64,000 nucleotides of DNA from an uncultured Gammaproteobacteria bacterium (GCA_964561945.1 CAZLQM010000003.1:1954-65953), one strand, 5' to 3'. Shown: positions 4,515-44,500, counted from the first letter of the stretch. Program-made: numbers and translations. The notes: generated from the letters alone by a model not told the origin.

Positions 4515-5660
4515 ATGGGAAAGATTATGTTGACATTTGTAGTGTTTTTTTTGATTTTATCAATATTAGTGATTATCCACGAACTTGGTCATTATTGGGT
4601 GGCGAAAAAAAATGGAATATATGTAGAAGAGTTTGGGTTTGGGTTACCCCCTAGGTTGTTTGGAATTAAATGGGGAGAAACGTTGTATTCGTTGAATTGG
4701 CTACCGTTTGGAGGGTTCGTAAGGCTATATGGTGAGGATGCTGAAGGGGAAGGAGAGTACGAAGTTGATGGTAAGGTGATTCCTAAGAGGAGAGCTTTTT
4801 ATGCGCAGAAGCCGTGGAGGAAAGCATCTGTGATCGTGGCTGGTGTGGTAATGAATATAATTTTGGCGGTGGGATTGTTTGCGGGAGCTTATTCGTTTAC
4901 GGGAATTCCGCAGTTAACTGACCGCGTCCAAGTGATCGATATAACGGATAGTAGTCCTGCTAAAGAAGCCGGATTGATGGCTCGAGATGTAGTAGTTGAG
5001 ATTGTGCCTGAGGGACAAGAGGCTGTGAAGGTTAATTCGGTTAAAGAATTTGTGGATGTGGTGGGAGCTAATAAGGGGAATTTGATTGGGGTAAATGTAA
5101 TAAGAGAAGTAGATGGGCAAGAAATTGAGGCTATGGTTAATGTGATTCCACGGGTTGATCCTCCAGCAGGTGAGGGATCGCTTGGGGTGGTGGTTTCGCA
5201 GGAAGTTATAAATAAATTTTATCCTTGGTGGCAGATGCCATTTTTGGGAGCTTGGGAGGGAATGAAAGAAGCCTTTGCATGGGCCGTAATGATCTTGCAA
5301 ATGTTGGGGACGATGGTGATGACAATTTTGCGAGGAAATGTACCACAAGGAGTAGCGGGACCTGTGGGTATTTATCAAGTTACAGGAGACGTGGTTAACT
5401 ATGGTTGGTTGGCTGTTGTTAGGTTCTTGGGTGTGTTATCGTTGAATTTGGCGGTGATGAATATTTTGCCGTTGCCTGCTTTGGATGGAGGTAGATTGTG
5501 GTTTGTAATTTATGAGGCAATTACAGGTAAGAGAGTTAAGCCTGCTTGGGAGAGAAGGATTCATGGAGCGGGAATGATTTTGTTATTAAGTTTGATCGTA
5601 TTGGTCACAGTGTCGGATGTGGCACGATTGTTTAGTTTTGATTTGCAGAGGATTTTTTAG
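4515..5660 (+). CDS. rseP: RIP zinc metalloprotease (site-2 protease, M50 family) with PDZ domain
   Basis: HELGHYW zinc motif; multiple TM helices; internal PDZ-like region; the ORF track starts at TTG 4464, ATG at 4515 more likely. Confidence 0.75.
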   Translation: MGKIMLTFVVFFLILSILVIIHELGHYWVAKKNGIYVEEFGFGLPPRLFGIKWGETLYSLNWLPFGGFVRLYGEDAEGEGEYEVDGKVIPKRRAFYAQKPWRKASVIVAGVVMNIILAVGLFAGAYSFTGIPQLTDRVQVIDITDSSPAKEAGLMARDVVVEIVPEGQEAVKVNSVKEFVDVVGANKGNLIGVNVIREVDGQEIEAMVNVIPRVDPPAGEGSLGVVVSQEVINKFYPWWQMPFLGAWEGMKEAFAWAVMILQMLGTMVMTILRGNVPQGVAGPVGIYQVTGDVVNYGWLAVVRFLGVLSLNLAVMNILPLPALDGGRLWFVIYEAITGKRVKPAWERRIHGAGMILLLSLIVLVTVSDVARLFSFDLQRIF

Positions 5661-5794
5661 GTTAGGAAAGTAAATTTTGCGTAAAAATTGGAGTGTGTTA
5701 ATAATAGAGTTTTAAGTATTTACATGATATTATAGGCTTAATATCGACATCTGCGCTGATAGGTTTTGACAAAATTACACGAGAGGAGAGACCT

Positions 5795-6139
5795 GTGGAT
5801 AATAAGAGTGATACTTTAATTGATTTGCATGGACAAAAAAATGAATTGGATATGGAATTGGGAGCAATTTATCATGAGAATTTGCGATTACTTGATTTAT
5901 CTTTACTTCCGATTCAAAGCGTGGTGGATTATTTAGATAAGATTATTGACCTACTTACGGAAAAGTGGACAGTAGTCGAAAAGATTGCTGTTTGGTATGA
6001 AGCAGATGAAGAAATATCTACTGTATGTAAAGAAACGTTAGCGTTGATGAATGATGCTAGTGAAACAAGAGCTGTTTACCAAGGTGTATTGGCTGGAGGC
6101 TACAAATTGGCCAAAAATCCGAAGGGAGAGGGCGGTTAG
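5795..6139 (+). CDS. hypothetical protein
   Basis: 114-aa ORF; no recognisable motif. Confidence 0.3.
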   Translation: MDNKSDTLIDLHGQKNELDMELGAIYHENLRLLDLSLLPIQSVVDYLDKIIDLLTEKWTVVEKIAVWYEADEEISTVCKETLALMNDASETRAVYQGVLAGGYKLAKNPKGEGG

Positions 6140-6449
6140 TGAGTTGTTGAATAACTTTTAGCCTTAGTTTCTCTTTGTAGTAATTGTAATTTGAGATTTA
6201 GGTGGTTGGTCTTCGTGACTGGCCGCTTTTTTTGATTAATTTTATGTTGAAGATAATTGTCTTATAGTGGATAATGATGGTGCTTGATTTTGGGAGGGGT
6301 AAGCCTTTATACTAGTCATGTTATTTATAAATTTCGTGTTTGCACTGATTTTGGATGTTTCTGCTTGCCGGAGTTGGAGGAATTTGATTTTGGCGAGTTG
6401 AGAGCTCGAAAAGAAAGTAAAGGCGCGGATTTGGAAGGAGGTGTTTTTT

Positions 6450-6644
6450 ATGGCAGTTGTTATAAAACGCAAAGCCAATGATACAGATGACAAAATGATC
6501 GCGGAATTCCGCAAAATGGTTATCGAAAACAATTTAATTGAATACTATAAAAGTAAAATGTTTCATTTGAAGCCATCGGCTCAAAAGAATATTTTAAATA
6601 ACAGTAGGAAACGTGGTAAAACACAGCCTCGTCGGAGTAAGTAA
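6450..6644 (+). CDS. rpsU: 30S ribosomal protein S21
   Basis: MAVVIKRKAND...RKRGK basic C-terminus typical of S21; GGAAGGAGG RBS upstream of ATG 6450. Confidence 0.7.
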   Translation: MAVVIKRKANDTDDKMIAEFRKMVIENNLIEYYKSKMFHLKPSAQKNILNNSRKRGKTQPRRSK

Positions 6645-6650
6645 ATTAAT

Positions 6651-7088
6651 ATGGCTTTGATAGATACGTTAAGCGAGGATATGCGACAGGCAATGAAGGC
6701 TGGAAACAAGCCATTGCTTGGAGTGTTGCGGTTGTTGGTGAGTGAGTTGAAGTATCGATTGATAGATAAGAGTGATTTGACGAAGGATGATGAGATTGCT
6801 TTTCTTATGTCTGAAGCAAAGAAAAGACGAGATTCAATCGAAGCCTATAAAAGTGTTAGCCCCGAGAGAGCAGATGCCGAGAGAGAAGAATTACGAATAA
6901 TTGAAACATATCTGCCAACCCAGCTGAGTGATGCGGAAATATTAGAAGTAGTCAAATCTGTTAAGAGTGAAAATCCAAGTTTGGCGATGGGGCCACTTAT
7001 GGGCAAAGTAATGGGTCAAATTAAACAGAATGGTGGATTAGTAGGTGGATCGCGAGTGAAATTAATGGTTGAAGAGATATTTAAATAA
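6651..7088 (+). CDS. yqeY: GatB/YqeY domain protein
   Basis: AMKAGNK...LGVLRLLVSELKY pattern of the YqeY family; follows rpsU as in many bacteria. Confidence 0.7.
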   Translation: MALIDTLSEDMRQAMKAGNKPLLGVLRLLVSELKYRLIDKSDLTKDDEIAFLMSEAKKRRDSIEAYKSVSPERADAEREELRIIETYLPTQLSDAEILEVVKSVKSENPSLAMGPLMGKVMGQIKQNGGLVGGSRVKLMVEEIFK

Positions 7089-7097
7089 AGAGTCTTT

Positions 7098-7493
7098 ATG
7101 TATAGTATTGATATAAAAAGTGATAGTAGATATCCTATTGATAGGGACAGAATTCGAGGAGCAATTGAAGATGTATTGCAAAAAGAAGGGATAAAAACTG
7201 ATGTGGAAGTAAGTGTGTTTGTGGTGGGAAAACGCAAAATGCATGGATTAAATTTGGAGTGGAGAGGGCTAGACTATGCGACTAACGTACTGTCTTTTTG
7301 TCAGGGCGAAACTAAAGATGGTAGTGGTGAGTACGCATATCCTAATAATCAGGTGTTGTATTTGGGTGATGTAGTGGTGTGTTACCCTGTGGCGCGCGAA
7401 CAAGCGCGGGAGTCGTGGTTGATGGTAGATGACTGGATTGAGACTCTCGTACGACACAGCATGGAGCATTTGTTAGGTAGGCATCATGTTTAG
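7098..7493 (+). CDS. ybeY: rRNA maturation endoribonuclease YbeY
   Basis: 131 aa; C-terminal HSMEHLLGRHH histidine cluster (H..H..H metal site). Confidence 0.8.
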   Translation: MYSIDIKSDSRYPIDRDRIRGAIEDVLQKEGIKTDVEVSVFVVGKRKMHGLNLEWRGLDYATNVLSFCQGETKDGSGEYAYPNNQVLYLGDVVVCYPVAREQARESWLMVDDWIETLVRHSMEHLLGRHHV

Positions 7494-7571
7494 GTTTTTG
7501 GTGAGGTTGGAGCTTGAGAAGAATTTATTTTTGCTTGCAATATAAGGATATTGAGGTTAGATTTAGAGTCA

Positions 7572-9218
7572 ATGGCTTTTTATCTTAAGTATCGTCCACA
7601 GTTGATAAGTGAACTTGATTTACCTGAAGTAAGAGAATCGTTACTTGGGTTACTTAAGTCAAAGTCTTTGCCTCATGCATTGTTATTTACGGGAATTCGG
7701 GGAACAGGTAAAACAAGTAGCGCGCGTATCTGGGCAAAGGCGATAAATTGTGAGAAGAGAGGTAGGGATTATGAGCCATGTAATAAGTGTGCTAATTGCG
7801 AGTCGATTACAAGCGGACGGAGTGTGGATGTGGTGGAGATGGACGCGGCCTCGAATCGCAAGATTGATGATATTCGGGATTTGCGTGAAAAAATTAGATT
7901 GGCTCCAACTGCGTTGAAGTATAAGATTTACATCATTGATGAGGTGCACATGTTGACGAATGAAGCCTTTAATGCGTTGCTTAAGACGTTGGAAGAGCCG
8001 CCTATAAATGTTTTGTTTGTGTTATGTACTACGGAGATTGATAAGTTGCCTGCAACGATTGTGTCGCGGTGTGTGAGAGTTAATTTTCGAATGGCAGGAT
8101 TAGAAGAGATCGCTAATTCTCTAGCGCGAGTAGCTAAAGGAGAAAAAATAAATATTGATAAGGAAGGAATTGATTTGATTGCCAAGTTGGGCGAGGGGAG
8201 TTTTCGCGATGCGACGAAAATGTTGGAGGAGATTGCTTGGATGGAGGGTAAGATTACGCAAGAAAGAGTTGAGGAGTTTTTTCATATAATCGGTGGGGAG
8301 ATGGAGACTTTGGGGCAGTTGATAAATTCCAAGGATGGATTGGGGATAATGAGTTTTGTGGAGTCTCGAGTCAGTGGCGGTGGGGATATAAAATTGTTAG
8401 CCGGTAGGGTCTTGGATTATTTGCATGTAGAATGGAAGAAGGCTTTGGAAGGTAAGAGTAGTTTAAATTATAGCGCCGGTGAAATAGGAAGTCTGATTGA
8501 TCGAGTGGATGAGTATTGGTGGAGATTTAATACGGCGCTTAAGGCCCAGTTGCCTTTGGAATTGGCTTTGGTTAATTGGTTAGAGGATCAAAATGATGGA
8601 AGTAATACAAATAAAAAAGTGAATGAAAAAAAAGTGATTAATCTTGAGATAAAAGGACAAACTCAAGATGTTAAGAAATCAGTCAAGGTTGAAGAACCAA
8701 AGGTCGAAGTGAAGAGAGCCCAATCGAAAGAAGTGATACCAGATGAATCTAAAACAGGTGCGAGCGTTGAAAGTATTGTGTTGGTTTGGGATGAGATTCT
8801 GGGGAAAGTGCGACAAAGGAATATTTCAGTCGAGGCATTTTTGCGTGCAGCTAGACCTGTGCGATTAAATAACAATCGATTAGTTTTAGAATTGGCGTAT
8901 TCGTTTCATCGGGATAAATTACTCGAAGAAGCAAATCGGAGGCTGGTGGAAGAGGTGGTAAGTAATTTGGTGGGGTTAAATTTGGGTATTGAGTGTGAAT
9001 TAAATATAAAATCAAGTTCGCTTGGTAAAGAAAAGGTAGTGGAAATTAAACCCGTATTTGTACCTTCGGCTGTGCGGAGTGTCCCAAGTGAGAATGCGGT
9101 TAGTTCTAAGAAATATGGTGGTGGATTTGGGCGGAGAACCATATCATCACAGTCTCCAGTGCCGACTGAGGAAGATGATGCGTTGGTGGAGTTTGCGGAG
9201 GAGTTATTTGGAAAGTGA
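7572..9218 (+). CDS. dnaX: DNA polymerase III subunit gamma/tau
   Basis: KYRPQ start; Walker A GIRGTGKTS; zinc module CNKCANCESI; dnaX-ybaB-recR synteny; the ORF track starts at TTG 7551. Confidence 0.9.
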   Translation: MAFYLKYRPQLISELDLPEVRESLLGLLKSKSLPHALLFTGIRGTGKTSSARIWAKAINCEKRGRDYEPCNKCANCESITSGRSVDVVEMDAASNRKIDDIRDLREKIRLAPTALKYKIYIIDEVHMLTNEAFNALLKTLEEPPINVLFVLCTTEIDKLPATIVSRCVRVNFRMAGLEEIANSLARVAKGEKINIDKEGIDLIAKLGEGSFRDATKMLEEIAWMEGKITQERVEEFFHIIGGEMETLGQLINSKDGLGIMSFVESRVSGGGDIKLLAGRVLDYLHVEWKKALEGKSSLNYSAGEIGSLIDRVDEYWWRFNTALKAQLPLELALVNWLEDQNDGSNTNKKVNEKKVINLEIKGQTQDVKKSVKVEEPKVEVKRAQSKEVIPDESKTGASVESIVLVWDEILGKVRQRNISVEAFLRAARPVRLNNNRLVLELAYSFHRDKLLEEANRRLVEEVVSNLVGLNLGIECELNIKSSSLGKEKVVEIKPVFVPSAVRSVPSENAVSSKKYGGGFGRRTISSQSPVPTEEDDALVEFAEELFGK

Positions 9219-17122: not shown

Positions 17123-18319
17123 TTAATCTTTTTTGTAATATTTTTTGTTTTTAAGTTGGTCGGGGAGATATGATTTGGCATCATACATTTGGTAGCCTTT
17201 GCCGTAATCAAGATCCTTCATGAGTTTGGTAGGAGCATTACGGAGATGTAATGGAATAGGCAGGTTAGCAAATGTTTGGACGTCGTTGACAGCTTGGGAA
17301 TATGCATTATATGAACTGCGGTCTTTGGGTGATTGACACATATAAACCACAGCATGTGCGAGATTGATGGCACATTCGGGATAGCCAATAATTTCGCAAG
17401 ATCGGAAGACTTGGTTGGCAAGCAGGAGGGCATTTGAATTGGCAATGCCGATATCTTCAGATGCAAAAATAACGATGCGTCGGGCGATAAAAAGTGGATC
17501 TTCGCCTGCTTCGACCATGCGAGCAAGATAATAAAGAGCTGCATCGGTTTGGGAGGCGCGCATGGATTTGATGAAGGCACTGATTGTGTTGTAGTGTTCG
17601 TCGCCTTGGCGATCGTAGTAGAGAGACTCACGTTGAGCAGCTTCTAGGATATCTGATTTGGTTATCTTGTGTTTGTTGTTAGCAAGTTCATGGGCGAGTT
17701 CGAGGATGTTAAGAGCTGTTCGAGCGTCTTGGTTAGCAAGGGAGATGATAAGGTTAGTGTCTTGGGCGGTGAGAGTTTTGGGAGGTAAGCCTAGGCCTTG
17801 GAGTTTGTTGGTAAGTGCAGTTTGGATAAGTTGAGCTAAAGGTTCTTCGGTGAGAGGTTTGAGGGTGAGGACGCGACAACGGGAGAGTAGGGCGTTATTG
17901 ATTTGGAAGCTGGGATTTTCTGTGGTAGCTCCGATGAGGATTAGAGTTCCTGATTCGACGTGTGGTAAGAGATAATCTTGTTGGGATTTGTTGAAGCGGT
18001 GGATTTCGTCGACGAAAAGGATGGTAAGTTGATTAGAGGTTTGGCTACTGGCTACGGCTTGGCGGATGTCTTTGACGCCAGAAGTTACAGCTGAGAGGTG
18101 AATTAGATTGCCGTTGAGACTGCGAGCTAAGATCCAAGCTAGAGTGGTTTTGCCGGTGCCCGGCGGTCCCCAGAAAATGAGGGAAATAGGTTTTGAGCTA
18201 TGGATGATGGAGTGAAGGATTTTGCCTGGGGCGGTGAGATGGTCCTGACCAAGAACTTGGTCAAGAGTTTGGGGGCGCATGCGATCAGCTAGAGGTGTGT
18301 AGGTGTTTGTGGTTTGCAT
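17123..18319 (-). CDS. rarA: replication-associated recombination protein A (AAA+ ATPase)
   Basis: Walker A FWGPPGTGKTTLA; RarA/MgsA C-terminal domain. Confidence 0.85.
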   Translation of the reverse strand: MQTTNTYTPLADRMRPQTLDQVLGQDHLTAPGKILHSIIHSSKPISLIFWGPPGTGKTTLAWILARSLNGNLIHLSAVTSGVKDIRQAVASSQTSNQLTILFVDEIHRFNKSQQDYLLPHVESGTLILIGATTENPSFQINNALLSRCRVLTLKPLTEEPLAQLIQTALTNKLQGLGLPPKTLTAQDTNLIISLANQDARTALNILELAHELANNKHKITKSDILEAAQRESLYYDRQGDEHYNTISAFIKSMRASQTDAALYYLARMVEAGEDPLFIARRIVIFASEDIGIANSNALLLANQVFRSCEIIGYPECAINLAHAVVYMCQSPKDRSSYNAYSQAVNDVQTFANLPIPLHLRNAPTKLMKDLDYGKGYQMYDAKSYLPDQLKNKKYYKKD

Positions 18320-19111: not shown

Positions 19112-20395
19112 TTAAATGCTTTTGGGGGCTTGGGTGAGGGTGGTGTCGCCTTTGATAGTTTGGCTACCTTTGCGAGGAAGAGTAAAGGTAAAAGTTGTAC
19201 CTTTGTCTGAAGATGTAAATGAAATCTCGCCTCCTGAAGCATTGATGATCATTTTGACAAGATATAGGCCTAGGCCTGTGCCCTCAATATCTTGGGAAAC
19301 TACATTGGAGGCTCGATAGAAACGACTGAAGATTTGGGGTTGGTCTTCTATGGGGATTCCCATGCCTGCGTCTTGGATATTGAAAATTATGTCATTATCT
19401 TTGCGAGTAATTGAGATTTGGATGGTGCTTTTGGGTGGGGAATATTTACTGGCATTAGAGAGTAAATTGAGGATAACCTCACGAATGAGCATGGGATCAA
19501 CGTTGAGCGTTTTGGGGACTTTGGTGGTGATTTCAAGAGAAATTTTTTGGTGTTTGGATTTGAAATTGTGGGATAGTTCTGATTGGATGTCTTGGAGTAA
19601 TTCTTCCAAATTAGTGGGGCGGGGAGTGACTGAGACTCTGCCGGATTCAAGTCGAGAAATATTGAGGAGATCGTTAACTAGGCGGATTTGGCGGATGGTG
19701 CTTTGGGACAGATGGGAGACAATTTCTAATTGTTTGGGATTGAGAGGACCGGTTTGGGTTTTGCGGAGTCTTTCGATTAGCCATTTGGAAGCGGTTAAAG
19801 GAGTGCGTAATTGATGGGAAGCAAGAGATACGAATTCTGACTTCATTTGGTCGGATAGTTGCTCTTCAGTGACGTCACGTCCGTAGATGTTGACTTGTGA
19901 TTTGGAAATTGGGACTATGAGAAGAGAGATGATCTGGGTTTGGAGTTGGAATTGATAAGTTCTGTAAAGATTGGATTTGAGGGATTGAGTGATGGTTTCT
20001 TGGAGGTCTTTGGGAATGGTGTGTTTGTGATGTTTAGCCCAAAAGGTGAGGAGCTCTTTGCCTGGGGGATTGGAATAGGTTATTTGCATATCGTTAACTT
20101 TGAACATGGGATAAGGATATTTGGAGACGAGGTCTATTTTGGTGGTATTGTGTTTGGATTGGGTTTGGGGGGATTGTTTGAAATACAAAATTAGTAAGAT
20201 AGTTATGGCGCTGATGGTGAGGAGATTCATGGCTACGAGGAAACCAAAAAGAAGTTGGGCTCCTTGGGCGGTGAGCATAGCTCGGTAAGCATTAGAAAGT
20301 TGGATGTTAATAGCGATATGATAAGCCCAGAGTGAGGTGAGAATTGCTATTTGCCAGGAATATTTGCGGATAAATTTGAGGAATTTGTGAGTCAT
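19112..20395 (-). CDS. membrane sensor histidine kinase
   Basis: N-terminal TM helices; HisKA H-box ASHQLRTPLT; HATPase N/G boxes NLLSNASKYSP and GTGLGLYLVK. Confidence 0.8.
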   Translation of the reverse strand: MTHKFLKFIRKYSWQIAILTSLWAYHIAINIQLSNAYRAMLTAQGAQLLFGFLVAMNLLTISAITILLILYFKQSPQTQSKHNTTKIDLVSKYPYPMFKVNDMQITYSNPPGKELLTFWAKHHKHTIPKDLQETITQSLKSNLYRTYQFQLQTQIISLLIVPISKSQVNIYGRDVTEEQLSDQMKSEFVSLASHQLRTPLTASKWLIERLRKTQTGPLNPKQLEIVSHLSQSTIRQIRLVNDLLNISRLESGRVSVTPRPTNLEELLQDIQSELSHNFKSKHQKISLEITTKVPKTLNVDPMLIREVILNLLSNASKYSPPKSTIQISITRKDNDIIFNIQDAGMGIPIEDQPQIFSRFYRASNVVSQDIEGTGLGLYLVKMIINASGGEISFTSSDKGTTFTFTLPRKGSQTIKGDTTLTQAPKSI

Positions 20396-20490: not shown

Positions 20491-21123
20491 TTAATTAGAG
20501 GAGTTTTGGTTTAAAGATTGTTGGTAATTCTCGATTAATTCTAAGATCCTTGGCATGATTATTTCGTGTGGTTTGATGTGAGGAGCGGTAATGCTGTCAG
20601 GATCGAAAAGTCCAAATTCATGAAGTTCTGCCAATGTTTGTAAATTTATGCCTGCGAGCATGAGATATTTTTCGTGTATTGTACCTCTTAGTTGTTGGGC
20701 GAGGATTTCTTGTTCGATATATACCAAGGTTTTACTATTAAAAACATGAGGTTCGTGGCTTTTAAGGGCATCAATTCCATATGCGCCACTACCACGAAAA
20801 ATTCTCATAGTTCTATTAAAAGCGGTGTGAGCCAATTCACTTGGTGGTTCATCTGGACTGGAGGTGCGGAGGTTTTGGAAGAAAGCGTTGAAGCAGTCTG
20901 CAAAATTGCCACCGGCAAGACGCTCTTTTATGGCTGCTAGATAATTTCCGTTGGTGGGACGATCTATACCGAACAATGATTTGAAAGCTGAGGTTTCCCA
21001 TGCGATAGCTCCAGCTTCGGCCATGACGCTACCTCTGTCACTACCGACATTGTCTGTGAGACTAATTCCAATAGTGCTTTTGTTGATGTGTTGAAGAATA
21101 TGAACAATTTCGTGATCTAACAA
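20491..21123 (-). CDS. HExxH-motif protein; the frame stays open upstream to 21426, so probably the C-terminal part of a larger frameshifted gene
   Basis: HEIVHILQH near the annotated TTG start; about 100 further in-frame sense codons upstream with no ATG/GTG/TTG. Confidence 0.4.
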   Translation of the reverse strand: MLDHEIVHILQHINKSTIGISLTDNVGSDRGSVMAEAGAIAWETSAFKSLFGIDRPTNGNYLAAIKERLAGGNFADCFNAFFQNLRTSSPDEPPSELAHTAFNRTMRIFRGSGAYGIDALKSHEPHVFNSKTLVYIEQEILAQQLRGTIHEKYLMLAGINLQTLAELHEFGLFDPDSITAPHIKPHEIIMPRILELIENYQQSLNQNSSN

Positions 21124-21401
21124 TGGTAAGGCACCTGTCGGGCTGAGCGAATTTAGTTTTCGAGATAAACTTTGGGGAATTAGTAACCTACGTGTTTTGG
21201 GAAGGTATCCTACGGTTTGGCGTTTGGAACTGATTTCAACTTGGACGTCGGAGATTTGATAGTTTTTGAGGACTTGTTCGGCTAAGTTTTTGAATTCATC
21301 AGCATTTATGGTGAGTGTATCTAGGATTTCGGGTGGTATATTTGAGAGAATACCTATAGTGTCGGGATTTGGAGGTTGCTCTAATGTATTGATTAATAGT
21401 T

Positions 21402-22382
21402 CTATTTGAGGAGCAAAACCCCAAAGTCATGGTTTGGTTCGTTGGTTGCAGATCCGTGGATGAATTTATCTCGTCGTGATATTTGACGTGAAGAGGTTTG
21501 GTGAGTGTTGTTTGTTAATTCTAGTGGAAGGGGGATATCTGCGGTGAGACATTGTCGTGCATAAATATCAGCATAATTACCTGATTCCGCCAAGAGAACG
21601 TTAATTCTTCTTCTATGAATGTTGAGCATGGTTATTTTGGCAAGAGAGGTAACAGTGTCATCACCTTTGAGTTCTTTGGTTTTTGCTTTGTTTATGCGTT
21701 TGAGAGATTTGAGCTGGTTGATTTTTTGGATTAGTTCATCTGGATTACGAATGACAGAAAATCTATGAGGAAGAGGGATATTATTTGTTTGGAAATTGTT
21801 CTGTTCTAAGTTTTTGATAAATTCTTCTTGTGCGTGTTTTTCGCTATCACCTTCGAGTTGGGATAATTGTTTAATTTGGTTTTGGGTTAATTGAGCATAG
21901 TCGTATCTACTTAAGAATTGACTGATATCTTGGATGTTAGCAAAGTCTAATTTATCAATTGGTTGATTTAATGTTTGTGACAATTGTTGTTTGCCTTGAT
22001 CGGTTAGGAAGTATTCTAGGAAAAAATTAGAAGCTTGGATGGTTATAGCATAGGTTGATTCTAGGCTGGGAGTTTGAAGTGTTTCTCCGGTGGGGAACGT
22101 ATGAGTAAGGTATCCAAGGGGTATGGCTTCTTGGGTATCAGAATTAATTGAGGTTGACCCACATGTAAGTTCATGCTCAAATGTGAGGACTTGATCTTTT
22201 TCTTCTGGAGTTAGAGAGAACTTGGGTTCTTGAGATAGGGTTTCTAGGTAAGATTCGATTGCAATTGCTGGACGTTCTGGGTAAGGGTAGTAACGAGATT
22301 CGGGGTGCACTATGTGATTATATAATATTATGTATCTTTGTGATAAGTTGACTAATTTCTGGTTGGAGTTGATTATGTTCAT
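21402..22382 (-). CDS. hypothetical protein (probable N-terminal part of the frameshifted gene)
   Basis: 326 aa; ends inside a GGGGTTTT homopolymer region where the downstream frame is open. Confidence 0.4.
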   Translation of the reverse strand: MNIINSNQKLVNLSQRYIILYNHIVHPESRYYPYPERPAIAIESYLETLSQEPKFSLTPEEKDQVLTFEHELTCGSTSINSDTQEAIPLGYLTHTFPTGETLQTPSLESTYAITIQASNFFLEYFLTDQGKQQLSQTLNQPIDKLDFANIQDISQFLSRYDYAQLTQNQIKQLSQLEGDSEKHAQEEFIKNLEQNNFQTNNIPLPHRFSVIRNPDELIQKINQLKSLKRINKAKTKELKGDDTVTSLAKITMLNIHRRRINVLLAESGNYADIYARQCLTADIPLPLELTNNTHQTSSRQISRRDKFIHGSATNEPNHDFGVLLLK

Positions 22383-23679
22383 TTAGAGATTTGGTAGGAA
22401 TGAGCATTTTGAGATATCGTTTACCCGGTTTAATTAATGCGTTAGGATTTGGCGTTTCATAAAGGAAGTATTGATAAGGAGTCAATTTAGGAAAAAGTGG
22501 GTTAGGATGGTTGGATGTCTTTGAAGGTGGAGCACTTGGGTCTTGAATAGAGTAAATGCCTGATTTGATAATATTTGGTTTTATTGGTTGGGCGTATGAA
22601 TTATAAAAAATTAAATATGAGAGAGTTGGGGGGTCGAAATTTATTGAATTAATTTTATCGAGTTGATTTGTGGTAAGTTTATAGGGAATTTGGAGGTGTT
22701 CAAGAATGTGGAGATATTGGAGGGGGATTGTGTTTTTATTGATTTGAATGGCAGTTAAAATCGGAGTCATATCTGTTAAGCGAGCATTAATCTCGATGAT
22801 ATATATTTGGTTATCTGATGTTTTGATAGCATCAATCCCAAAGATTCCTAAATATCCGTATTGAAACATTATTTTTCCTGCTACTTGAGCTTGATTTTGG
22901 AGGAATTGAATATCTTGTTTGGTAAAATCATTTGGAGACCATTGTCCTCCACAAAATTGTGATGATCCTAATTTCGTTGTGTTGCAGAGTTCTGGTTGGG
23001 AAATTATTTGTTTTTGGATGCCAGAGGTTAGAGTACCGTAGTTGCTGGTGTTGCAAGCTTGAATACTTATTGAGCTTCCTTGAATAAATTTGGAGATGAT
23101 GAGAGGATTATTTTGAGTTTGAGTACTTAGATTATTGAGTGAGTTTTGGAATTCTTGGTAGCTATTGATTATATAAGTTCCTCTTCCTCCACTTAACATT
23201 GAATGTTGGATAACAAATTTGCCATATTTAGAATTTAAAGTTTTGAATTTTTGCAGGGGTGATTGGATTAGATTCGGGAGATATATAAATTCAAAAGGGG
23301 GAAATTTGAGATTGGGAATGGTTTGTCTAACTTTTGATTTGTTTTCGAATTTTTTATATATTTTGTAGTTGTTTTGGAGTATTGGAATATTTAATTTTAG
23401 GGGAGTTGGCTTGTATAGAATAACAGCTGTAATTGCAAGTTTGTGGAGCATTTTTGTGATTTGAGGGTTTAGAAATATTGTTTCTGTTTTGGCGTTAGAT
23501 GTGTTTACTAGATGATGAACTTTATCGAGATTGGGGTATTGGGATATCCAGTTTGCAGGTTTGGTGGTGATAATGGAATAGTTGTTAAGAATTGTTTCTA
23601 GTCCAGTACGGTCTGAGAATTTGAGACCAACTCCAACGATTTTGTGTTTTTGTAATTGCAGAAGAGAGGGGAGGTACAT
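22318..23679 (-). CDS. ATP-grasp family protein (putative peptide/amide ligase)
   Basis: 453 aa; GIFGIDAIK...IYIIEINARLT resembles the ATP-grasp C-terminal catalytic motif. Confidence 0.5.
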   Translation of the reverse strand: MYLPSLLQLQKHKIVGVGLKFSDRTGLETILNNYSIITTKPANWISQYPNLDKVHHLVNTSNAKTETIFLNPQITKMLHKLAITAVILYKPTPLKLNIPILQNNYKIYKKFENKSKVRQTIPNLKFPPFEFIYLPNLIQSPLQKFKTLNSKYGKFVIQHSMLSGGRGTYIINSYQEFQNSLNNLSTQTQNNPLIISKFIQGSSISIQACNTSNYGTLTSGIQKQIISQPELCNTTKLGSSQFCGGQWSPNDFTKQDIQFLQNQAQVAGKIMFQYGYLGIFGIDAIKTSDNQIYIIEINARLTDMTPILTAIQINKNTIPLQYLHILEHLQIPYKLTTNQLDKINSINFDPPTLSYLIFYNSYAQPIKPNIIKSGIYSIQDPSAPPSKTSNHPNPLFPKLTPYQYFLYETPNPNALIKPGKRYLKMLIPTKSLNEHNQLQPEISQLITKIHNII

Positions 23680-23759
23680 ACATTAATAGAATTGGTAAGT
23701 TTTATTTTGTTGGTGATTTGGAATTGGGGTATTGTATCAAAACTTGAGTGGATGATTAA

Positions 23760-24317
23760 CTAAGTTTTGAGATGGGTGATTTGGTTGATGAGCATGGTTC
23801 GGTCCCAGAGTTCGATTTGGTTGGCTGTGGCCAATTCTTTGGCGGCACGGGTGAAGTAACTGTTGGTTACGACGATGCCTCGATCGGCCTTGTAGTAACC
23901 TTTGGCACCAATTGTTTGTTGTATAGCTTCGATGCCGACGGTTTGGTCGTAGCGTTTGGCTTGGACGACGATAGTTTGGCCGTCGCGTTCGAGGAGTAGA
24001 TCGCATCCAAAATCGCCAGTGTCACCGATGTTAGTGCTTTTAAATTTAAGTTGTTGGAAAAGCCAGTGAAGATAGTCTTCGAATCGAGATCCTTCCATAC
24101 GGTCAATATCGCGGATACCTGAACGGATGAGCTTGAGGTGTCTGCGGATGTGGATGGTGACTTGTAGGATAATTACAATTAAGGGAACAATCCAAAGTGG
24201 CCAGAGGCGTGGAAGTGTGTATGTAAAGAATACTTTGATATATTGATTTATATTAAGATTGGTTAAGTCAGAGAATGATTGATTTATTTGAGATGTGTAG
24301 TTTTCAATTGTGGGCAT
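23760..24317 (-). CDS. membrane-anchored restriction-endonuclease-like (Mrr_cat, PD-(D/E)xK) domain protein
   Basis: N-terminal TM helix; DTGDFGCDLLLERDGQTIVVQAKRY matches the Mrr catalytic core pattern (D...D/E.K, QxKRY). Confidence 0.55.
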   Translation of the reverse strand: MPTIENYTSQINQSFSDLTNLNINQYIKVFFTYTLPRLWPLWIVPLIVIILQVTIHIRRHLKLIRSGIRDIDRMEGSRFEDYLHWLFQQLKFKSTNIGDTGDFGCDLLLERDGQTIVVQAKRYDQTVGIEAIQQTIGAKGYYKADRGIVVTNSYFTRAAKELATANQIELWDRTMLINQITHLKT

Positions 24318-24445
24318 AGTGAGTGTGATGTTAAAAATAGGATTACTTAATATTGACTATATCAATTAGTTGGGGTGGACGTGAAGATAGAGTGGTTTAA
24401 CTTCAAATTCTGATTGAAGTTTGGGAATTTTAAATTGCGAAGTAA

Positions 24446-25579
24446 TTATTTGGGTGGAGTATTGAGATCGTAGAGGATTTTGAGATTTTTAAGAAATGAG
24501 GGGTTATTAGGGGAGATTGGTTGTGTGAATTGTTGGAGTTCTTGGAGACTGGCTTTGCCGTTCCAAGCATAATTTAGAAGATCTGGATCGTTGAGTATTT
24601 GTTGAATGACTGATAGAGTCCATTGAAAATATAGGTCTTTGGTTAGAGCTCCGGGTTGAGTAGTGTCGGAGAGGCCTCTTTTGGCTCTAAAAGTTAGATT
24701 CCAGAGAGTATTTTTATTATGGGTAAAGGTTTGAAGATATTTAAAGGTTTGTGAGAATGAATGTTCTAGGGCAAAGTTGATGGTGATAAGTGATAGGGCT
24801 GTTTTGCGTAAATGGGTTTGGGGGTTGTTAGCACGGCTAGTAATTATGGCGATGCCTTCTTCATCTTGGAAGTAGCGGGCGGTACCGTACTTAAATATTT
24901 GGTAGGGATTTTTATTCCCATTAGATAATCGGAGGAGATGTGTACCAATTTCGTGTTCGAGAGAGATATTTAATTTATTTTGGGTGCGACGAATAAGATG
25001 TGGAATTTTGATTTTGCCAAGACGAGTAATGGAGAGAATATTTTTGGTATTTTTGTGGACGCTGATAGGAGCGGTGAGATTGTATTTTCGGAGAACTTGA
25101 TTGGTGGTTTGAATAATTTGATCAAGGGTCAAATTGGGATTTGAGGTGCGGGGTTTTTTGGGAAGTTGGAGGACATAGAGAGCGTCTTTGATAAATTGAG
25201 GTTCGGGGTGACCGTAAATTTTAATTGATAAATTAGTAAACTGACTTGGTTCTTGGCCTATTTGATTAATTAAATCAAGGACAAGTAGGCATTCTTGGAG
25301 TCTGTTTAAATAGAGTTTCCCAATATCAGTATTTGGGATTTTGGGGAGAAGATTATTTATATCTTGGCGGTATTGGTCTAAGTTGGCTTTGAGTGGGCGA
25401 TACTGAAATTGAGGATTGTAGGTAAAGTTTGATTGGAAGAATTTGCGTTTTTCTTCAAGTAGGTTTATTGGGCGGGTGGCTTTGATTATTGATATGTGAG
25501 ATACGAATTTTTTTAGAAAATTATCTAGCTTGGTATAAATGGGATCAATTGGCATATGGTGATTATATATTATTCTCAT
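24446..25579 (-). CDS. DUF1704-like zincin (QEGLA-motif family, tyrosine/phenylalanine carboxypeptidase-like)
   Basis: HEIGTHLLR HExxH motif plus FQDEEGIAI resembling the QEGLA signature; this family commonly pairs with ATP-grasp ligases. Confidence 0.45.
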   Translation of the reverse strand: MRIIYNHHMPIDPIYTKLDNFLKKFVSHISIIKATRPINLLEEKRKFFQSNFTYNPQFQYRPLKANLDQYRQDINNLLPKIPNTDIGKLYLNRLQECLLVLDLINQIGQEPSQFTNLSIKIYGHPEPQFIKDALYVLQLPKKPRTSNPNLTLDQIIQTTNQVLRKYNLTAPISVHKNTKNILSITRLGKIKIPHLIRRTQNKLNISLEHEIGTHLLRLSNGNKNPYQIFKYGTARYFQDEEGIAIITSRANNPQTHLRKTALSLITINFALEHSFSQTFKYLQTFTHNKNTLWNLTFRAKRGLSDTTQPGALTKDLYFQWTLSVIQQILNDPDLLNYAWNGKASLQELQQFTQPISPNNPSFLKNLKILYDLNTPPK

Positions 25580-26605: not shown

Positions 26606-27358
26606 GTGGCAAATTTTATACCTTTTAAAAAATATTTTCTTTATTGTTTGAAGAAATATAGTGAGAAATATGATTTCCAATCGCCTTTTTTGGATATTGG
26701 CTGTGGTATTGGTGATGTAAGTTTGTTTTTAGGACAAAATGGCTATAGTGGAGAAGCAATAGATTTGTCTATTGATGCTTTGGATAAAGCAAAATGTATT
26801 TTATTTGATTATCAGGTAAGAGTACATGAAGTAGATTTTATGGATCATAAAGGTAAATATAATTTAATTATTTTTTTTGATGTGATGGAGCATATTGAAG
26901 ATGATATGAAAGCTCTGAAGAAAATATATAAACTTTTAAATAAAGGAGGGTATTTGATAATTACAACACCAAGTAATAAGCGTGAGTGGGGTTGGGATGA
27001 TCGATTTTACGGTCATTATAGAAGGTATTCAATTGAGGAAGTTAGAAATAAGTTGCATAAAAGTAAGTTTGGAATTTTTGAAATTATCGATGTGTCATTT
27101 CCTGTGTTTTGGATGATGAGGAAGTTTTTTGTTTTTTTAGGTTTGAAGAGAAATTCTAGCGTTTATAAGAAAGAGTTTCAAAAACGTACAGTTGATAGTA
27201 CAGCAAATGATGCGTGGAAAATTCCTGTCATCTCAACTCTGATTAATAGAGAGTCTATAGTTTGGAGAGTTATTTATTTTATACAATATACTTTTTTTAA
27301 GAAATTTACAGTTTTAGGTAGCGAAATTATGATTATTGCTAAGAAATATGAGAATTAA
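26606..27358 (+). CDS. class I SAM-dependent methyltransferase
   Basis: LDIGCGIGD motif I. Confidence 0.7.
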   Translation: MANFIPFKKYFLYCLKKYSEKYDFQSPFLDIGCGIGDVSLFLGQNGYSGEAIDLSIDALDKAKCILFDYQVRVHEVDFMDHKGKYNLIIFFDVMEHIEDDMKALKKIYKLLNKGGYLIITTPSNKREWGWDDRFYGHYRRYSIEEVRNKLHKSKFGIFEIIDVSFPVFWMMRKFFVFLGLKRNSSVYKKEFQKRTVDSTANDAWKIPVISTLINRESIVWRVIYFIQYTFFKKFTVLGSEIMIIAKKYEN

Positions 27359-28322
27359 AGTGAATCGGGCGTGTATATTGTGTGATGGGCGGAAATTTGT
27401 GAATTTGTATTCGAGTTATGATTATTTGACATGTAAATCTTATTTGGTTGAAAAATGTTCTAAGTGTGAATTGGTGAGAACTAAAATTAATGGAAAAGTA
27501 AGTGTGAGCCAAATATATCCGGTGGAATATTATGGTAATAAAGGGTCTAGATTTGGAGTTTTTTTGGAAATATTAGTTAAGTATTTTAGGTATCAAAGAG
27601 CAAATTTTATAGATTATGTAGTAAGGATTAATTCTAAGTCAATTTTAGATTGTGGCTGTGGAAGAGGAATTATGCTTGATCATCTTAAAAATAGAGGTTG
27701 GAGTGTGTGTGGTACTGAAATTGATTCTGTTTTAGTTGATGCTTTGAAAAGTAAAGGGATTGATGTATTTGAGACTGATAGTGTTAGTTCTTTAGGAAAT
27801 AAACCAAGATTTAAGGTTGTGTCGTTATTTCATGTTTTGGAACATTTATCAAATCCTAAGGTTGAGCTTGGTTATATTTATAATTTACTTGAAGATGATG
27901 GGTTATTAGTGGTAGAAGTACCGAATTTGGGAAGTTTCCAAGCAAAAATATCAAGAGGAAAGTGGTTTCATTTAGATGTACCAAGACATATAAGTCATTT
28001 TGAGTTAAAGACTTTGAAAGCTTTAGTTGAATCTACTGGCTTTGAAATATGTTCGATAACTACTCACTCATGGGAATATGGGTATTTTGGATTGTTGCAA
28101 AGTTTACAGAATATTTTGTCTTCGGATGGTCAGTCAAATGCTTTTTATAATAATTTGCATGTTAACAAGGGGAAAAGTATTAATAATCGCAAGAATTTGG
28201 TTTTTGGGTTGATACTGTCTTTTATTTTGTTACCTATTGTTTTTGTTTTGGAGAGTATCTTTTCGTTGGTTGGACGAGGTGGGGCGCTTCGGTTGGTTGC
28301 TAAAAAGAGGGAAATTAAATAA
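27336..28322 (+). CDS. class I SAM-dependent methyltransferase with N-terminal Cys4 zinc ribbon and C-terminal TM helix
   Basis: CILCDG...CSKCE; ILDCGCGRG motif I; hydrophobic tail. Confidence 0.7.
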   Translation: MLRNMRIKVNRACILCDGRKFVNLYSSYDYLTCKSYLVEKCSKCELVRTKINGKVSVSQIYPVEYYGNKGSRFGVFLEILVKYFRYQRANFIDYVVRINSKSILDCGCGRGIMLDHLKNRGWSVCGTEIDSVLVDALKSKGIDVFETDSVSSLGNKPRFKVVSLFHVLEHLSNPKVELGYIYNLLEDDGLLVVEVPNLGSFQAKISRGKWFHLDVPRHISHFELKTLKALVESTGFEICSITTHSWEYGYFGLLQSLQNILSSDGQSNAFYNNLHVNKGKSINNRKNLVFGLILSFILLPIVFVLESIFSLVGRGGALRLVAKKREIK

Positions 28323-29036
28323 TTTAAGTTTATGGAGTTTGAATTGTATTCCTACACGTAAGATTCCCAGCCCATATTTTAGACTACGTCTAAAGTTAAT
28401 TGAGGAAGCGTCAGGGTGGTAGCTGGTGGGACAGGAAATTTCTCCTATTCTGAATCCATGATAAATTGATTGAGCTAGTAGTTCGTTATCAAAAATGAAG
28501 TCATCTGAGTTAGCAGAAAAGTTAATTTTTTTAAGAACGTCACTTGTGTATGCTCTGAAACCTGTGTGATATTCGGATATTTTGTAATTAAATATTATGT
28601 TGGAATATAGGGTTAACAATCTATTAAATAGATATTTCCACCATGGCATTTGTTTGATTCGTAGAGTTTGATCTCCTATTATTCTGGAAGCAAGAATAAT
28701 GTCGTAGTGGCCAGAAATAAGCATTGCTGCCATGGCGGTTGTTAAAAGGGGTGAGTATTGGTAGTCAGCGTGAATCATAATTATGATATCCGCATTTTGT
28801 TTAAGTGCCGTTTGATAGCAAGTTTTTTGGTTGGCGCCATAACCTTGGTTTTGGGAGTGGCAGATATATTGAACTGGAAGTTTTCTTGCTATTCGAGCAG
28901 TCTTGTCCTGACTGTGATCATCAACTACAATAATTTTGTCTACAATGTTATTAGGTATTTCATCAATAGTTTTCTTGAGAGTTTTTTCTGCATTATATGC
29001 GGGCATGACGACAATAATTTTTTGGTTCTTTAGCAT
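28230..29036 (-). CDS. family 2 glycosyltransferase
   Basis: IIVVMPAYNAEKTL...IIVVDDHSQD GT2 signature (DxD). Confidence 0.8.
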   Translation of the reverse strand: MLKNQKIIVVMPAYNAEKTLKKTIDEIPNNIVDKIIVVDDHSQDKTARIARKLPVQYICHSQNQGYGANQKTCYQTALKQNADIIIMIHADYQYSPLLTTAMAAMLISGHYDIILASRIIGDQTLRIKQMPWWKYLFNRLLTLYSNIIFNYKISEYHTGFRAYTSDVLKKINFSANSDDFIFDNELLAQSIYHGFRIGEISCPTSYHPDASSINFRRSLKYGLGILRVGIQFKLHKLKLFNFPLFSNQPKRPTSSNQRKDTLQNKNNR

Positions 29037-29044
29037 ATAATTAA

Positions 29045-30589
29045 ATGTTCATTATAAATTCTAAACTAAAACTAATTGTTGTTTATTTAATAATAATATT
29101 GGCAGGTTTTGTCTTTGTTGGGAAAACGCAATTGCATACAGATATCTTATACTTTTTGTATGTTTTTAAGTCAATTATTGTTAACAATTTGCGATTAAGT
29201 GTTGACATATTTGATGTTAATACACCTATTACTTATTTGTTTAATTTACCGGTTGTTTTGTTAAATCTTAAGTTAGGAATGCCATTGGAAGTAACGTTTA
29301 AGATTTATTCGTTAATACTAGTATTAACAGTTTATTTTGGATTTTACAGAACCCTGTTTAGGGATCTAAAAATTATAATTTGGGATAATAAATCAGAAGA
29401 ATTTACCGGAGTTGTTTTCTTGACTTTGGTTTTGTTTACGGGACAAGATTTTATGCAAAGAGATTTTTGGGGAGTATATTTGACAATTCCATTTATTTTT
29501 TTGTCATATAGAAATTTGATTTTAGATAGAAAGCCATATTTTTGGGAAATTATTTTTGTAGTTTTGTTAGGAACTGTTGGTTTGGGGTTTAAACCGGTGT
29601 ATATAATAATGGTTTTATTTTGTGAAGTTTATTTTTTAATCATGACTTCTGGTAGAAGTCTTTTACGTAGAGAATTGTGGATTCTAGCTGGTGTGGGGAT
29701 TGTAGAATTGGTTGCTATGTATGTCTTTTATCCTGGTTTACTTCAAGAGTTCTGGTTAGGCACGCGATATTATCACGGTTTTGTAAGTCGGGGTGTGTGG
29801 GTGAACTGGGAGATGTGGTTTGGTATAGTGTTATTTTTATATTTGTTTTTGAAATCAGTTTTAAATAAAAAGTATAAATTTAATTTGTTTTTGAGTATTT
29901 TGATATTAAGTTTGTTAAGTACGGCTTATTTACAAGGAAAGGGATTCTGGCACCATTTTTGGGGAATTAGAATTATCTTGGGGATTTCGGCGGTGAGAAT
30001 AATTTATTCCCTGAAAGGGAATTGGAAGAAAATCTCAATAAAACTGTTTTTAAGTAAACTTATATTAATATTGATTTTGTATTTAATTTCTGTGGTGTGG
30101 TTATTTCAATGGATAGTAGCAATGCAACCTTTGTTGTCAGTGTCCAGTGAAGTATATGTTCAAAATGTAGAGTATTTTAAGTTGAAACTAAATTATAATG
30201 AAAGATTTGCAGTCGTTAGTACTGTATTATATCCATTTTCATTATTAGAGGAGTATACGGGGGCATTAAATGTTATGAGGTATAGAAATTTGTGGATGTT
30301 ACCTGGGATGTATTTTGGTACAGATTCGGATATATATAGAAATGTAAATCAAATGAATGTTGATGAATTAGGAGTTTATGAGAGTGTGATAGGAGATTTG
30401 ATAAATAAAGAACCGAAAATTATTGTAATTGATAATTGTAATCAGAAAAGTGGTTGGGTTAATAGATCTTTTGATTATTATAAATATTTTGGCCAATCAA
30501 AAGAATTTGATTTATTGTTATTAACTTTATATACGAAGGATACTTCTGTGTATGGGTGTTATGATGTTTGGGAACGTCGCTTGTTGTAA
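29045..30589 (+). CDS. polytopic membrane protein (possible GT-C-like glycosyl/oligosaccharyl transferase)
   Basis: 514 aa, more than 10 predicted TM helices; lies within the glycan-modification cluster. Confidence 0.4.
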   Translation: MFIINSKLKLIVVYLIIILAGFVFVGKTQLHTDILYFLYVFKSIIVNNLRLSVDIFDVNTPITYLFNLPVVLLNLKLGMPLEVTFKIYSLILVLTVYFGFYRTLFRDLKIIIWDNKSEEFTGVVFLTLVLFTGQDFMQRDFWGVYLTIPFIFLSYRNLILDRKPYFWEIIFVVLLGTVGLGFKPVYIIMVLFCEVYFLIMTSGRSLLRRELWILAGVGIVELVAMYVFYPGLLQEFWLGTRYYHGFVSRGVWVNWEMWFGIVLFLYLFLKSVLNKKYKFNLFLSILILSLLSTAYLQGKGFWHHFWGIRIILGISAVRIIYSLKGNWKKISIKLFLSKLILILILYLISVVWLFQWIVAMQPLLSVSSEVYVQNVEYFKLKLNYNERFAVVSTVLYPFSLLEEYTGALNVMRYRNLWMLPGMYFGTDSDIYRNVNQMNVDELGVYESVIGDLINKEPKIIVIDNCNQKSGWVNRSFDYYKYFGQSKEFDLLLLTLYTKDTSVYGCYDVWERRLL

Positions 30590-41844: not shown

Positions 41845-42360
41845 TTGAGAATTGTTGGGGAGTTGTGGCATAGTCTTATAATGGCAAAAATAGTGGGGTT
41901 TATATTTTTGGTTGGGGTGATAGTTGGAGGATGGTTTTATCTGCGGAGTGAGAGGGTTTTGTCGGAGGTTGAAAGGGATGATTTGATAAAAAATGCACGA
42001 GAGTATTTATCCAGTAATCCAATAGTCGAGAATAGCAACAATCGTGTGAAATTAGATCAGTATTGGGAACAATCACATTTGGGGAGAGATGAGTCGAGAA
42101 GATTTGATAGTGAATGGATTGATGGTAATGATCCTCTAGTTTATCCGATGGGCGGAGATAAATGGGGAGTGGTGTGGAAGGGAATGCCTGGATGTAAGCT
42201 GGTAGAGCCTTTGGAACTTGGATATGAACCTGTGTTGGTGGATGAGAGCGGTAAAGTTTGTGGGACTTGGTGGCAAATAACTGTGGAGATTGATAATAAG
42301 ATAGAGCAGAGGAGTCTTGTGATTCGGGAAATAGGATATGGTGAGGATTTGGAGTTGTAG
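41845..42360 (+). CDS. hypothetical protein with N-terminal TM helix
   Basis: 171-aa ORF. Confidence 0.35.
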   Translation: MRIVGELWHSLIMAKIVGFIFLVGVIVGGWFYLRSERVLSEVERDDLIKNAREYLSSNPIVENSNNRVKLDQYWEQSHLGRDESRRFDSEWIDGNDPLVYPMGGDKWGVVWKGMPGCKLVEPLELGYEPVLVDESGKVCGTWWQITVEIDNKIEQRSLVIREIGYGEDLEL

Positions 42361-42422
42361 AGAGAGCAAAAAGTAAAAAGCACCATACTTGTCGAGTATG
42401 GTGCTGGAGTATATATGTGGGT

Positions 42423-43470: not shown

Positions 43471-43519
43471 TCGCTTTCCGCCGCCGCCGAATTTCGTGCC
43501 AACGAAGTTGGTGCGCCGC

Positions 43520-44497: not shown

Positions 44498-44500
44498 AAT

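Follow-up and report, generated by a model that had tools for sequence, protein, structure and literature searches.

A 64,000-nucleotide stretch of DNA deposited under the name of an uncultured Gammaproteobacteria bacterium (GCA_964561945.1, CAZLQM010000003.1:1954-65953; the window hereafter) carries at 20491-25579, on its minus strand, genes for a MATCAP-family (DUF1704/QEGLA-type) gluzincin carboxypeptidase, a membrane Mrr_cat protein, a divergent ATP-grasp carboxylate-amine ligase and a long MATCAP-like protein with a broken reading frame (genes 1 to 4). We think it on balance probable that this locus is a fast-changing composite rather than a four-gene system, and that it serves a Candidate Phyla Radiation bacterium in ligating and trimming amino-acid tails. 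What is described below on family membership, active-site motifs, the broken frame and the statistics of gene neighbourhoods is directly observed. All four genes reported in an initial annotation of the sequence are present, together with every motif that it quoted, and the families that it gave for genes 1 to 3 (MATCAP, Mrr_cat and ATP-grasp) hold under hidden Markov model searches.

Gene 1 (24446-25579, minus strand, 377 amino acids) matches the Pfam MATCAP family (PF08014, formerly DUF1704) over profile positions 2-330 of 365 (E=3.5e-31; 108.9 bits vs a cutoff of 27). It also matches the NCBIfam QEGLA model TIGR02421 (E=1.3e-40; 139.9 bits), under the equivalog cutoff of 338.65; the exact QEGLA motif is absent, the protein reading DEEGIA. 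Gene 1 is thus a member of the same superfamily as TIGR02421 but not the proteobacterial equivalog. The motifs HEIGTH (H209, E210, H214) and FQDEEGIAI, the latter with EEG (E240, E241, G242), are both present, and these six residues are invariant in an alignment across five homologues. A profile built from gene 1 and four homologues matches the human MATCAP structures 7z5g and 7z6s at 8.5e-43. HExxxH and EEG catalytic motifs have been documented for TMCP1/2, along with carboxypeptidase activity on C-terminal Tyr/Glu (PMC10499314). We predict that gene 1 encodes a MATCAP-type metallocarboxypeptidase, the true start of which, judging from sister sequences, may be the Met at residue 9.

The genomic company of MATCAP genes was surveyed in 32 loci from GTDB genomes, mostly Patescibacteria; phmmer detected 31 of them, and these were tabulated. 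In 26 of the 31 the retrieved locus includes an ATP-grasp gene, which reproduces the pairing of ATP-grasp enzymes with QEGLA/DUF1704 zincins that the initial annotation had put forward as established. ATPgrasp_ST is encoded directly upstream of MATCAP in 15 loci, and 7TM_transglut is present in 16. Four of the 26 are fusions, single open reading frames (ORFs) of 805-827 amino acids in which Pfam finds an N-terminal ATPgrasp_ST domain (E down to 1e-62) and a C-terminal MATCAP domain (E down to 1e-55). They derive from metagenome-assembled genomes (MAGs) of Gracilibacteria, Peribacteria and other Patescibacteria (L012:5582-8062, L013:2224-4644, L014:4511-6925 and L015:4559-6973). The MATCAP/ATP-grasp linkage is strong and is supported by these fusions. 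One MATCAP gene, a single case on a short contig (L054:1176-3388), has an MreB/Mbl actin-like gene 30 nucleotides upstream; eukaryotic MATCAP acts on a cytoskeletal protein. Seven loci (L010, L011, L019, L021, L029, L033 and L034) come from MAGs that are clearly Patescibacteria-like in gene content and relatives but are titled 'uncultured Gammaproteobacteria' or 'Pseudomonadales', probably through automated mislabelling.

A comparison with two sister genomes indicates how quickly the locus changes. An ORF listing over 17-30 kb of the window shows that the minus-strand series starts at 25579 with gene 1 and runs unbroken through a histidine kinase (19112-20395, minus strand, 427 amino acids) and RarA (17123-18319, minus strand, 398 amino acids). 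In the sister L005 (GCA_964444295.1), where gene 1 is 70% identical, the order is Dus, pilin, MATCAP, a 772-amino-acid gene on the opposite strand, Mrr_cat, histidine kinase, response regulator and RarA. In the sister L006, where gene 1 is 48% identical, it is Dus, MATCAP, RimK, RimK, Mrr_cat, histidine kinase, response regulator and RarA. Genes 3 and 4 have no counterpart by homology in either sister, so co-conservation of the four genes, as the initial annotation had envisaged it, is not observed. The variable slot between MATCAP and the histidine kinase is filled in all three genomes only by ATP-grasp or MATCAP-like genes: an ATP-grasp gene and gene 4 in the window, two RimK-type ligases in L006 and the opposite-strand 772-amino-acid MATCAP-like gene in L005.

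The L005 protein (5520-7838, minus strand), which lies between MATCAP and Mrr_cat, contains HEIMAH...NEGLA and has a weak MATCAP match (3.5e-5). Its membership in the gene 4 family was considered and is not clear (0.2% and 55% probability). It appears to be a third kind of long MATCAP-like protein, and one possibility is that it corresponds to gene 4 after a strand inversion, its composition having been rewritten by the GC skew described below.

Gene 3 (22318-23679, minus strand, 453 amino acids) matches ATP-grasp_3 (E=2.3e-11; 44.5 bits vs a cutoff of 23.2) and contains the motif IYIIEINARLT. Across a four-member family no change is seen at D283, E296 and N298 (FGID...EINAR), the metal-binding residues of the enzyme. 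The best-scoring NCBIfam model is PRK06524 (NF005096; E=3.4e-19; 68.3 bits vs a cutoff of 684), as it is for the ligase of locus L041 and for the relative P0001. The initial annotation had suggested a TIGR02291-like subfamily, and this assignment fails: ATPgrasp_ST (PF14397) reaches 21.1 bits, below its threshold of 31.4, and neither TIGR02291 nor the RimK Pfam model is matched. TTL (PF03133) scores 21.0 bits vs a cutoff of 20.1 over only profile positions 40-107 of 292, with ATP-grasp_3 and ATP-grasp scoring higher. No phmmer connection links gene 3 to the RimK genes of L006, and a single-protein scan of the genome contigs with gene 3 returned no relatives. The nearest solved sequence to the gene 3 family is LdmS (7r8p/7r8q; 4.7e-6), a local match over 56 aligned residues, followed by CPSase at 1e-3. 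The top fold matches of a predicted model are all ATP-grasp enzymes, LdmS and RizA first and then PurP, Ddl and PurK, with low TM-scores (~0.3). Gene 3 is best described as a predicted carboxylate-amine ligase, of neither the RimK nor the ATPgrasp_ST type and probably not of the TTL type, that appears closest to PRK06524 and the L-amino-acid ligases.

Ligases of the gene 3 type occur in varied company. In L041, from an Omnitrophota genome, such an ATP-grasp gene (E=6.5e-20) begins 30 nucleotides after a MATCAP gene, and the pair is followed by a gene for a 536-amino-acid protein and then by CstA. The Dojkabacteria locus L003 places the ligase with a pyridoxal phosphate (PLP) enzyme and a methyltransferase, without MATCAP, and the protein after the ligase is unrelated to gene 4. 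In L055 the ligase (P0002) is followed by a Nudix-like fragment, recognized by eye only, and MATCAP is again absent. The 536-amino-acid protein of L041 (9554-11164, plus strand) has no Pfam or NCBIfam match; its stretch 'FFVKPHEGGGGLGGFRI' recalls an ATP-grasp strand.

Gene 4 is spread over two reading frames, of which the downstream one (frame B, 20491-21426, minus strand, ~310 amino acids) holds a MATCAP-like gluzincin domain. Its motifs are HEIVHILQH, AEAGA with a putative third ligand, FNRTMRIFRGSG and YIEQE, the first of these being an HExxH in contrast to the HExxxH of MATCAP. This C-terminal fragment reaches NCBIfam QEGLA at E=3.6e-4 and Pfam MATCAP at E=0.015 (14.8 bits, below the threshold of 27). 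The N-terminal frame (frame A, 21402-22310, minus strand, ~300 amino acids), mainly helical and without known domain, has no Pfam or NCBIfam match. Word-indexed homologue searches gave only 2, 1 and 5 hits, a skewed amino-acid composition being the probable limit. Only an exhaustive profile search brought the gene 4 family to light, with 420 representatives (50% identity clusters) at E<=1e-3, of which 233 reach E<=1e-30. Members are nearly all 590-640 amino acids long and are matched end to end.

An alignment of 67 members of the gene 4 family reveals invariant columns at H415, E416 and H419 (HExxH), E449 (EAGA), G484, R520, Y543 and E545, as well as at G282 in the N-terminal half, and the window gene keeps every one of these residues. 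Pfam gives no meaningful match for any of the 67 and no MATCAP match at E<=0.01, and four representatives have no NCBIfam match. Compared as profiles, the family and MATCAP align over 220 collinear columns (hhalign probability 92.1%, E=6.2e-7), pairing HExxH with HExxxH, EAGA with EEGLA and RLFRxGG with RxKRG. Compared directly, gene 4 and gene 1 give a BLASTP E-value of 0.16 and a shallow hhalign probability of 5%, and a PDB sequence search with gene 4 profiles returned nothing significant. The second zincin of the initial annotation thus stands, as a remote homologue of MATCAP. We predict that the gene 4 product is a gluzincin remotely akin to MATCAP, preceded by ~330 N-terminal amino acids that are unique to it, and its family is the most novel element of the locus.

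The neighbours of gene 4 homologues were collected from 12 metagenome loci, retrieved with a 12-sequence subset of the family. Most are housekeeping genes, including YchF, DnaX, PBP1 (three loci) and a tRNA synthetase, and no gene 4 homologue occurs in any of the 31 MATCAP loci; gene 4 thus does not belong to the co-conserved unit that had been proposed. In L048 the order is 7TM_transglut, ATPgrasp_ST, RimK, GNAT, a gene-4-like gene, RimK and PBP1, with the gene-4-like gene in the usual MATCAP position. It is possible, though we lean slightly against it, that gene 4 represents an undescribed, widespread family of HExxH gluzincins of ~610 amino acids (at least 420 clusters), that this family supplies alternative 'erasers' in ATP-grasp tail systems and that, taken with the fusions, it points to an origin of the eukaryotic TTL/MATCAP pairing in an ancient, diversified prokaryotic module. 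If so, L048 would be a case in which a gene-4-like gene replaces MATCAP as the eraser. Genes for class A penicillin-binding proteins (Transgly plus Transpeptidase) are found directly downstream of gene 4 homologues, or one gene away from them, in three of the 12 loci (L048, L051 and L053). The homologue of L042 has a beta-lactamase/DD-carboxypeptidase-like gene and a GH18 gene as neighbours. The family may be linked to the cell envelope.

Frame A of gene 4 starts at a GTG at 22310, 7 nucleotides past the stop of gene 3, and is cut short by a premature TAG; position 22382 offers an additional ATG in the same frame. Three-frame translations show that the open frames overlap only at 21405-21426, an interval that holds the G4T4 homopolymer pair GGGGTTTT at 21415-21422 on the minus strand. 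Frame B lies at -1 with respect to frame A, and one added G gives ...DFGGFAPQI.... An intact homologue of 610 amino acids, P0003 (32% identity, 97% coverage), aligns unbroken across the junction (DKF..G....FxPI), with frame A covering its residues 1-~300; because of this continuous alignment we regard gene 4 as one gene with a one-base deficit. The initial annotation had described a HEIVHILQH-containing frame of ~640 amino acids split by a frameshift; the motif and the split stand, and the length is corrected to ~605 amino acids from the GTG at 22310.

The same break is found in the assembly ERZ795033 (L001), which was deposited separately, may share reads with the present one, and is 99.97% identical and ungapped over 23718-20871. 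The first ATG, GTG or TTG of frame B, at 21123, lies immediately before the HExxH, and without a start codon upstream of the catalytic domain this domain is therefore not made alone. Two forms of recoding were considered. Programmed frameshifting was judged unlikely, as GAC TTT GGG GTT TTG, read in the zero frame, offers no X XXY YYZ heptamer, and inspection of the sequence shows the runs to be too short for transcriptional slippage. Disrupted by the one-base break, gene 4 is probably inactive here or only recently inactivated; it carries no second lesion.

Gene 2 (23760-24317, minus strand, 185 amino acids) matches Pfam Mrr_cat (PF04471) over profile positions 1-113 of 115 (E=3e-30; 105.1 bits vs a cutoff of 21), and a PD-(D/E)xK-type D...QAK motif can be read in its sequence (GDFGCD...VVQAKRY). 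One hydrophobic segment precedes the nuclease domain at residues 33-59 (Kyte-Doolittle 19-residue windows above 1.6, maximum 2.03), and the product is predicted to be a single-pass membrane protein with a C-terminal Mrr_cat domain. Its identity to the two sisters (91% and 73%) is like that of RarA (89% and 71%) and of the histidine kinase (85% and 70%), the MATCAP protein being less conserved (70% and 48%). Among the tabulated MATCAP loci, Mrr_cat is found only in these two sisters and is missing from the remaining 29, contrary to its proposed place in a co-conserved unit. In both sisters it adjoins the histidine kinase, with gaps of 50-66 nucleotides. Gene 2 is probably a conserved syntenic neighbour that stands outside the ligase/peptidase module.

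The mechanism that we propose assigns a writing and an erasing step to the locus. The gene 3 ligase would use ATP to add at least one amino acid to a carboxylate, for which the C-terminal end of a protein or peptide is the likeliest candidate, and the gene 1 MATCAP enzyme would trim the residues so added. Gene 4 would be a long, paralogue-like zincin, disabled here by the one-base break. Gene 2 would belong to the backbone formed by Dus at one end and Mrr, histidine kinase, response regulator and RarA at the other, and would merely lie between the partners. The ligation of amino acids to a protein C-terminus by ATP-grasp enzymes has precedent in RimK and TTL (PMC4431377). The close spacing of genes 3 and 4 (7 nucleotides) and a scan that showed no terminator-like site between the genes, though at chance level overall, fit this reading. 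The chemistry, direction of action and substrate given here are inferred, on the model of RimK acting on S6 and of TTL and MATCAP acting on tubulin.

Several observations weigh against this proposal. Genes 1 and 3 are kept apart by gene 2 in the window, and the L005 MATCAP gene has no ATP-grasp gene on its 12-kb contig. Gene 3 is not of the RimK/ATPgrasp_ST type that is usual for MATCAP partners; a MATCAP-superfamily gene is present in only two of the four known contexts of gene-3-type ligases, and the nearest characterized relatives of gene 3 make free dipeptides. Where most ATP-grasp enzymes have K/R, gene 3 has a Q in the 'FVIQ' strand, invariant in the four-member family. Gene 4 homologues usually do not stand beside ATP-grasp genes, doing so in only one of the 12 metagenome loci, and the contig of P0003 has one ~9.5 kb away. 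The AlphaFold2 models are of low confidence, with a predicted local distance difference test score (pLDDT) of 52 for gene 3 (core 70-90) and of 42 for gene 4, the latter from a two-sequence alignment.

The resemblance of gene 3 to dipeptide-forming enzymes raises an alternative in small-peptide metabolism, in which gene 3 would be a free L-amino-acid ligase that makes dipeptides or short peptides and MATCAP-type enzymes would hydrolyse or recycle them. The nearest solved or curated relatives of gene 3 are indeed the L-amino-acid ligases LdmS (7r8p/7r8q), RizA and BL00235. The CstA gene that follows the L041 pair encodes a peptide/pyruvate transporter, and the association with a PLP enzyme and a methyltransferase in L003 resembles small-molecule biosynthesis. 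However, the similarity to L-amino-acid ligases is local and weak, confined to 56 residues and to TM-scores of ~0.3 for a low-confidence model, and the characterized MATCAP-family enzymes all act on protein C-termini. The fusions and the 7TM_transglut triads do not separate a small-peptide from a protein-tail role. We consider the small-peptide alternative rather unlikely. The genes might instead form no functional unit, in which case genes 3 and 4 would have been inserted at a variable spot in this lineage alone, gene 4 would be decaying as a pseudogene, and the nearness to MATCAP and Mrr_cat would be incidental. Such a view would fit the absence of genes 3 and 4 from both sisters, the broken frame of gene 4 and the mostly housekeeping surroundings of its homologues. 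The promoter and terminator scan, at chance level and hence uninformative, is likewise compatible with incidental adjacency. Random insertion is unlikely, however, given that the slot holds only ATP-grasp/MATCAP-like genes in three related genomes; moreover, in L041, which belongs to an unrelated phylum, MATCAP is again followed by an ATP-grasp gene of this type, and gene 4 retains its invariant residues free of a second lesion. Incidental adjacency strikes us as quite improbable.

The initial annotation had suggested a peptide-modification or conflict system. In a four-gene conflict or defence system, the membrane Mrr_cat protein would be an effector tied to the ligation and removal of peptide tags. 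The Mrr_cat domain does resemble the nucleases found in ZorD, in type IV restriction enzymes and in LmuA, and its gene is co-oriented between MATCAP and ATP-grasp in the window and lies, again co-oriented, just after two RimK ligases in L006. Yet PADLOC matched gene 2 only at its Mrr domain (ZorD C-terminus, type IV restriction endonuclease), and its defence models gave no match for genes 1, 3 and 4 or for the gene 4 homologue P0003. The link to MATCAP is confined to two sisters, in both of which Mrr_cat stands next to the histidine kinase, and gene 2 falls outside the pattern of defence genes because it is conserved like RarA and the histidine kinase, unlike fast-evolving defence genes. The region shows no signature of a mobile element or island, and its GC skew is that of the rest of the genome. 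A conflict system is thus unsupported, and we hold it to be very improbable indeed.

Outside the gene cluster, the most striking feature of the window is its extreme, strand-wide GC skew, which extends to the whole genome. The plus strand contains 18052 G vs 7629 C (skew +0.41), and 2-kb bins range from +0.3 to +0.6 whichever way the genes point. Third codon positions give values of +0.65 to +0.84 in plus-strand genes and of -0.54 to -0.82 in minus-strand genes, reaching ~±0.8. Because of this skew, Q, N, T, P, I and K abound in proteins encoded on the minus strand, and G, V, E, D and R in those encoded on the plus strand. Other assemblies of the organism (L001, L002 and L004) and the sister MAGs GCA_964444295.1 and GCA_964464795.1 share the skew, whereas other Patescibacteria loci do not. 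To our knowledge it lies far beyond typical bacterial values, and we found no report of such skew in the literature searched. The skew falls to 0.10-0.28 at 42000-46000 and 60000-64000, against a background of ~0.45, and a tRNA gene lies at 45201-45284 (minus strand); the low-skew segments could be recently acquired or inverted. Beyond Dus, at 26606-30589, translations inspected by eye suggest two methyltransferase-like ORFs, a family-2 glycosyltransferase-like ORF and a large polytopic membrane protein, in a block of low GC (0.29-0.36) that resembles a surface-glycan cluster.

A comparison with known systems places the locus next to, rather than within, several of them. The closest is the triad of DUF1704/MATCAP (TIGR02421), ATPgrasp_ST (PF14397; TIGR02291-like) and 7TM_transglut (PF14402), which likewise encodes a gluzincin with an ATP-grasp enzyme. 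We take the neighbourhood of DUF1704 and ATP-grasp, with or without 7TM_transglut, to be an established one from Pfam/TIGRFAM annotations; it could not be confirmed in the literature searched, where we found nothing on bacterial DUF1704/QEGLA proteins or on MATCAP with ATP-grasp. The window differs from the triad in that no 7TM_transglut, ATPgrasp_ST or RimK homologue is found anywhere in its 64 kb, the ligase belonging to another branch, and in that an Mrr_cat gene intervenes and a second, long MATCAP-like gene is present. The locus can thus be described as a variant of the DUF1704 and ATP-grasp neighbourhood with a different ligase branch, no 7TM_transglut, an unrelated gene between the partners and an extra long MATCAP-like paralogue.

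The individual genes likewise resemble characterized enzymes only in part. Gene 2 shares with Mrr-type (type IV) restriction endonucleases a full-length Mrr_cat domain and the D...QxK motif but differs in having a single transmembrane helix in place of a DNA-recognition N-terminal domain, in its length of just 185 amino acids and in being conserved like a core gene within the lineage. For gene 3 and its relatives, sequence and fold searches match best to LdmS (SAOUHSC_02373; 7r8p/7r8q), RizA and PRK06524, with scores far under the family cutoffs (68 vs 684 bits), 56 residues matched and a low-confidence fold model. RimK, like the proposed ligase, is an ATP-grasp enzyme that adds amino acids to a protein C-terminus, that of ribosomal protein S6 (PMC4431377), and RimK-type genes flank MATCAP in L006 and other loci; gene 3, however, lacks a RimK Pfam match and is unlinked by phmmer to the RimK genes of L006.

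The tubulin tyrosination cycle draws on the same two superfamilies, with TTL, an ATP-grasp enzyme, as writer and MATCAP/TMCP1-2 as eraser, and gene 1 keeps the HExxxH and EEG motifs of the latter. MATCAP was identified as a tubulin detyrosinase only in 2022. The window differs from this cycle in that no tubulin substrate is evident and gene 3 is probably not a TTL-family protein. The locus and its relatives show that ATP-grasp ligases are the habitual partners of the MATCAP fold in ultra-small bacteria, in some cases within one polypeptide, that the type of partner is interchangeable, and that a second large, unnamed MATCAP-like family exists. They offer concrete candidates for the search for the molecules on which bacteria write and erase amino-acid tails, and for tracing how the tubulin tyrosination cycle arose.

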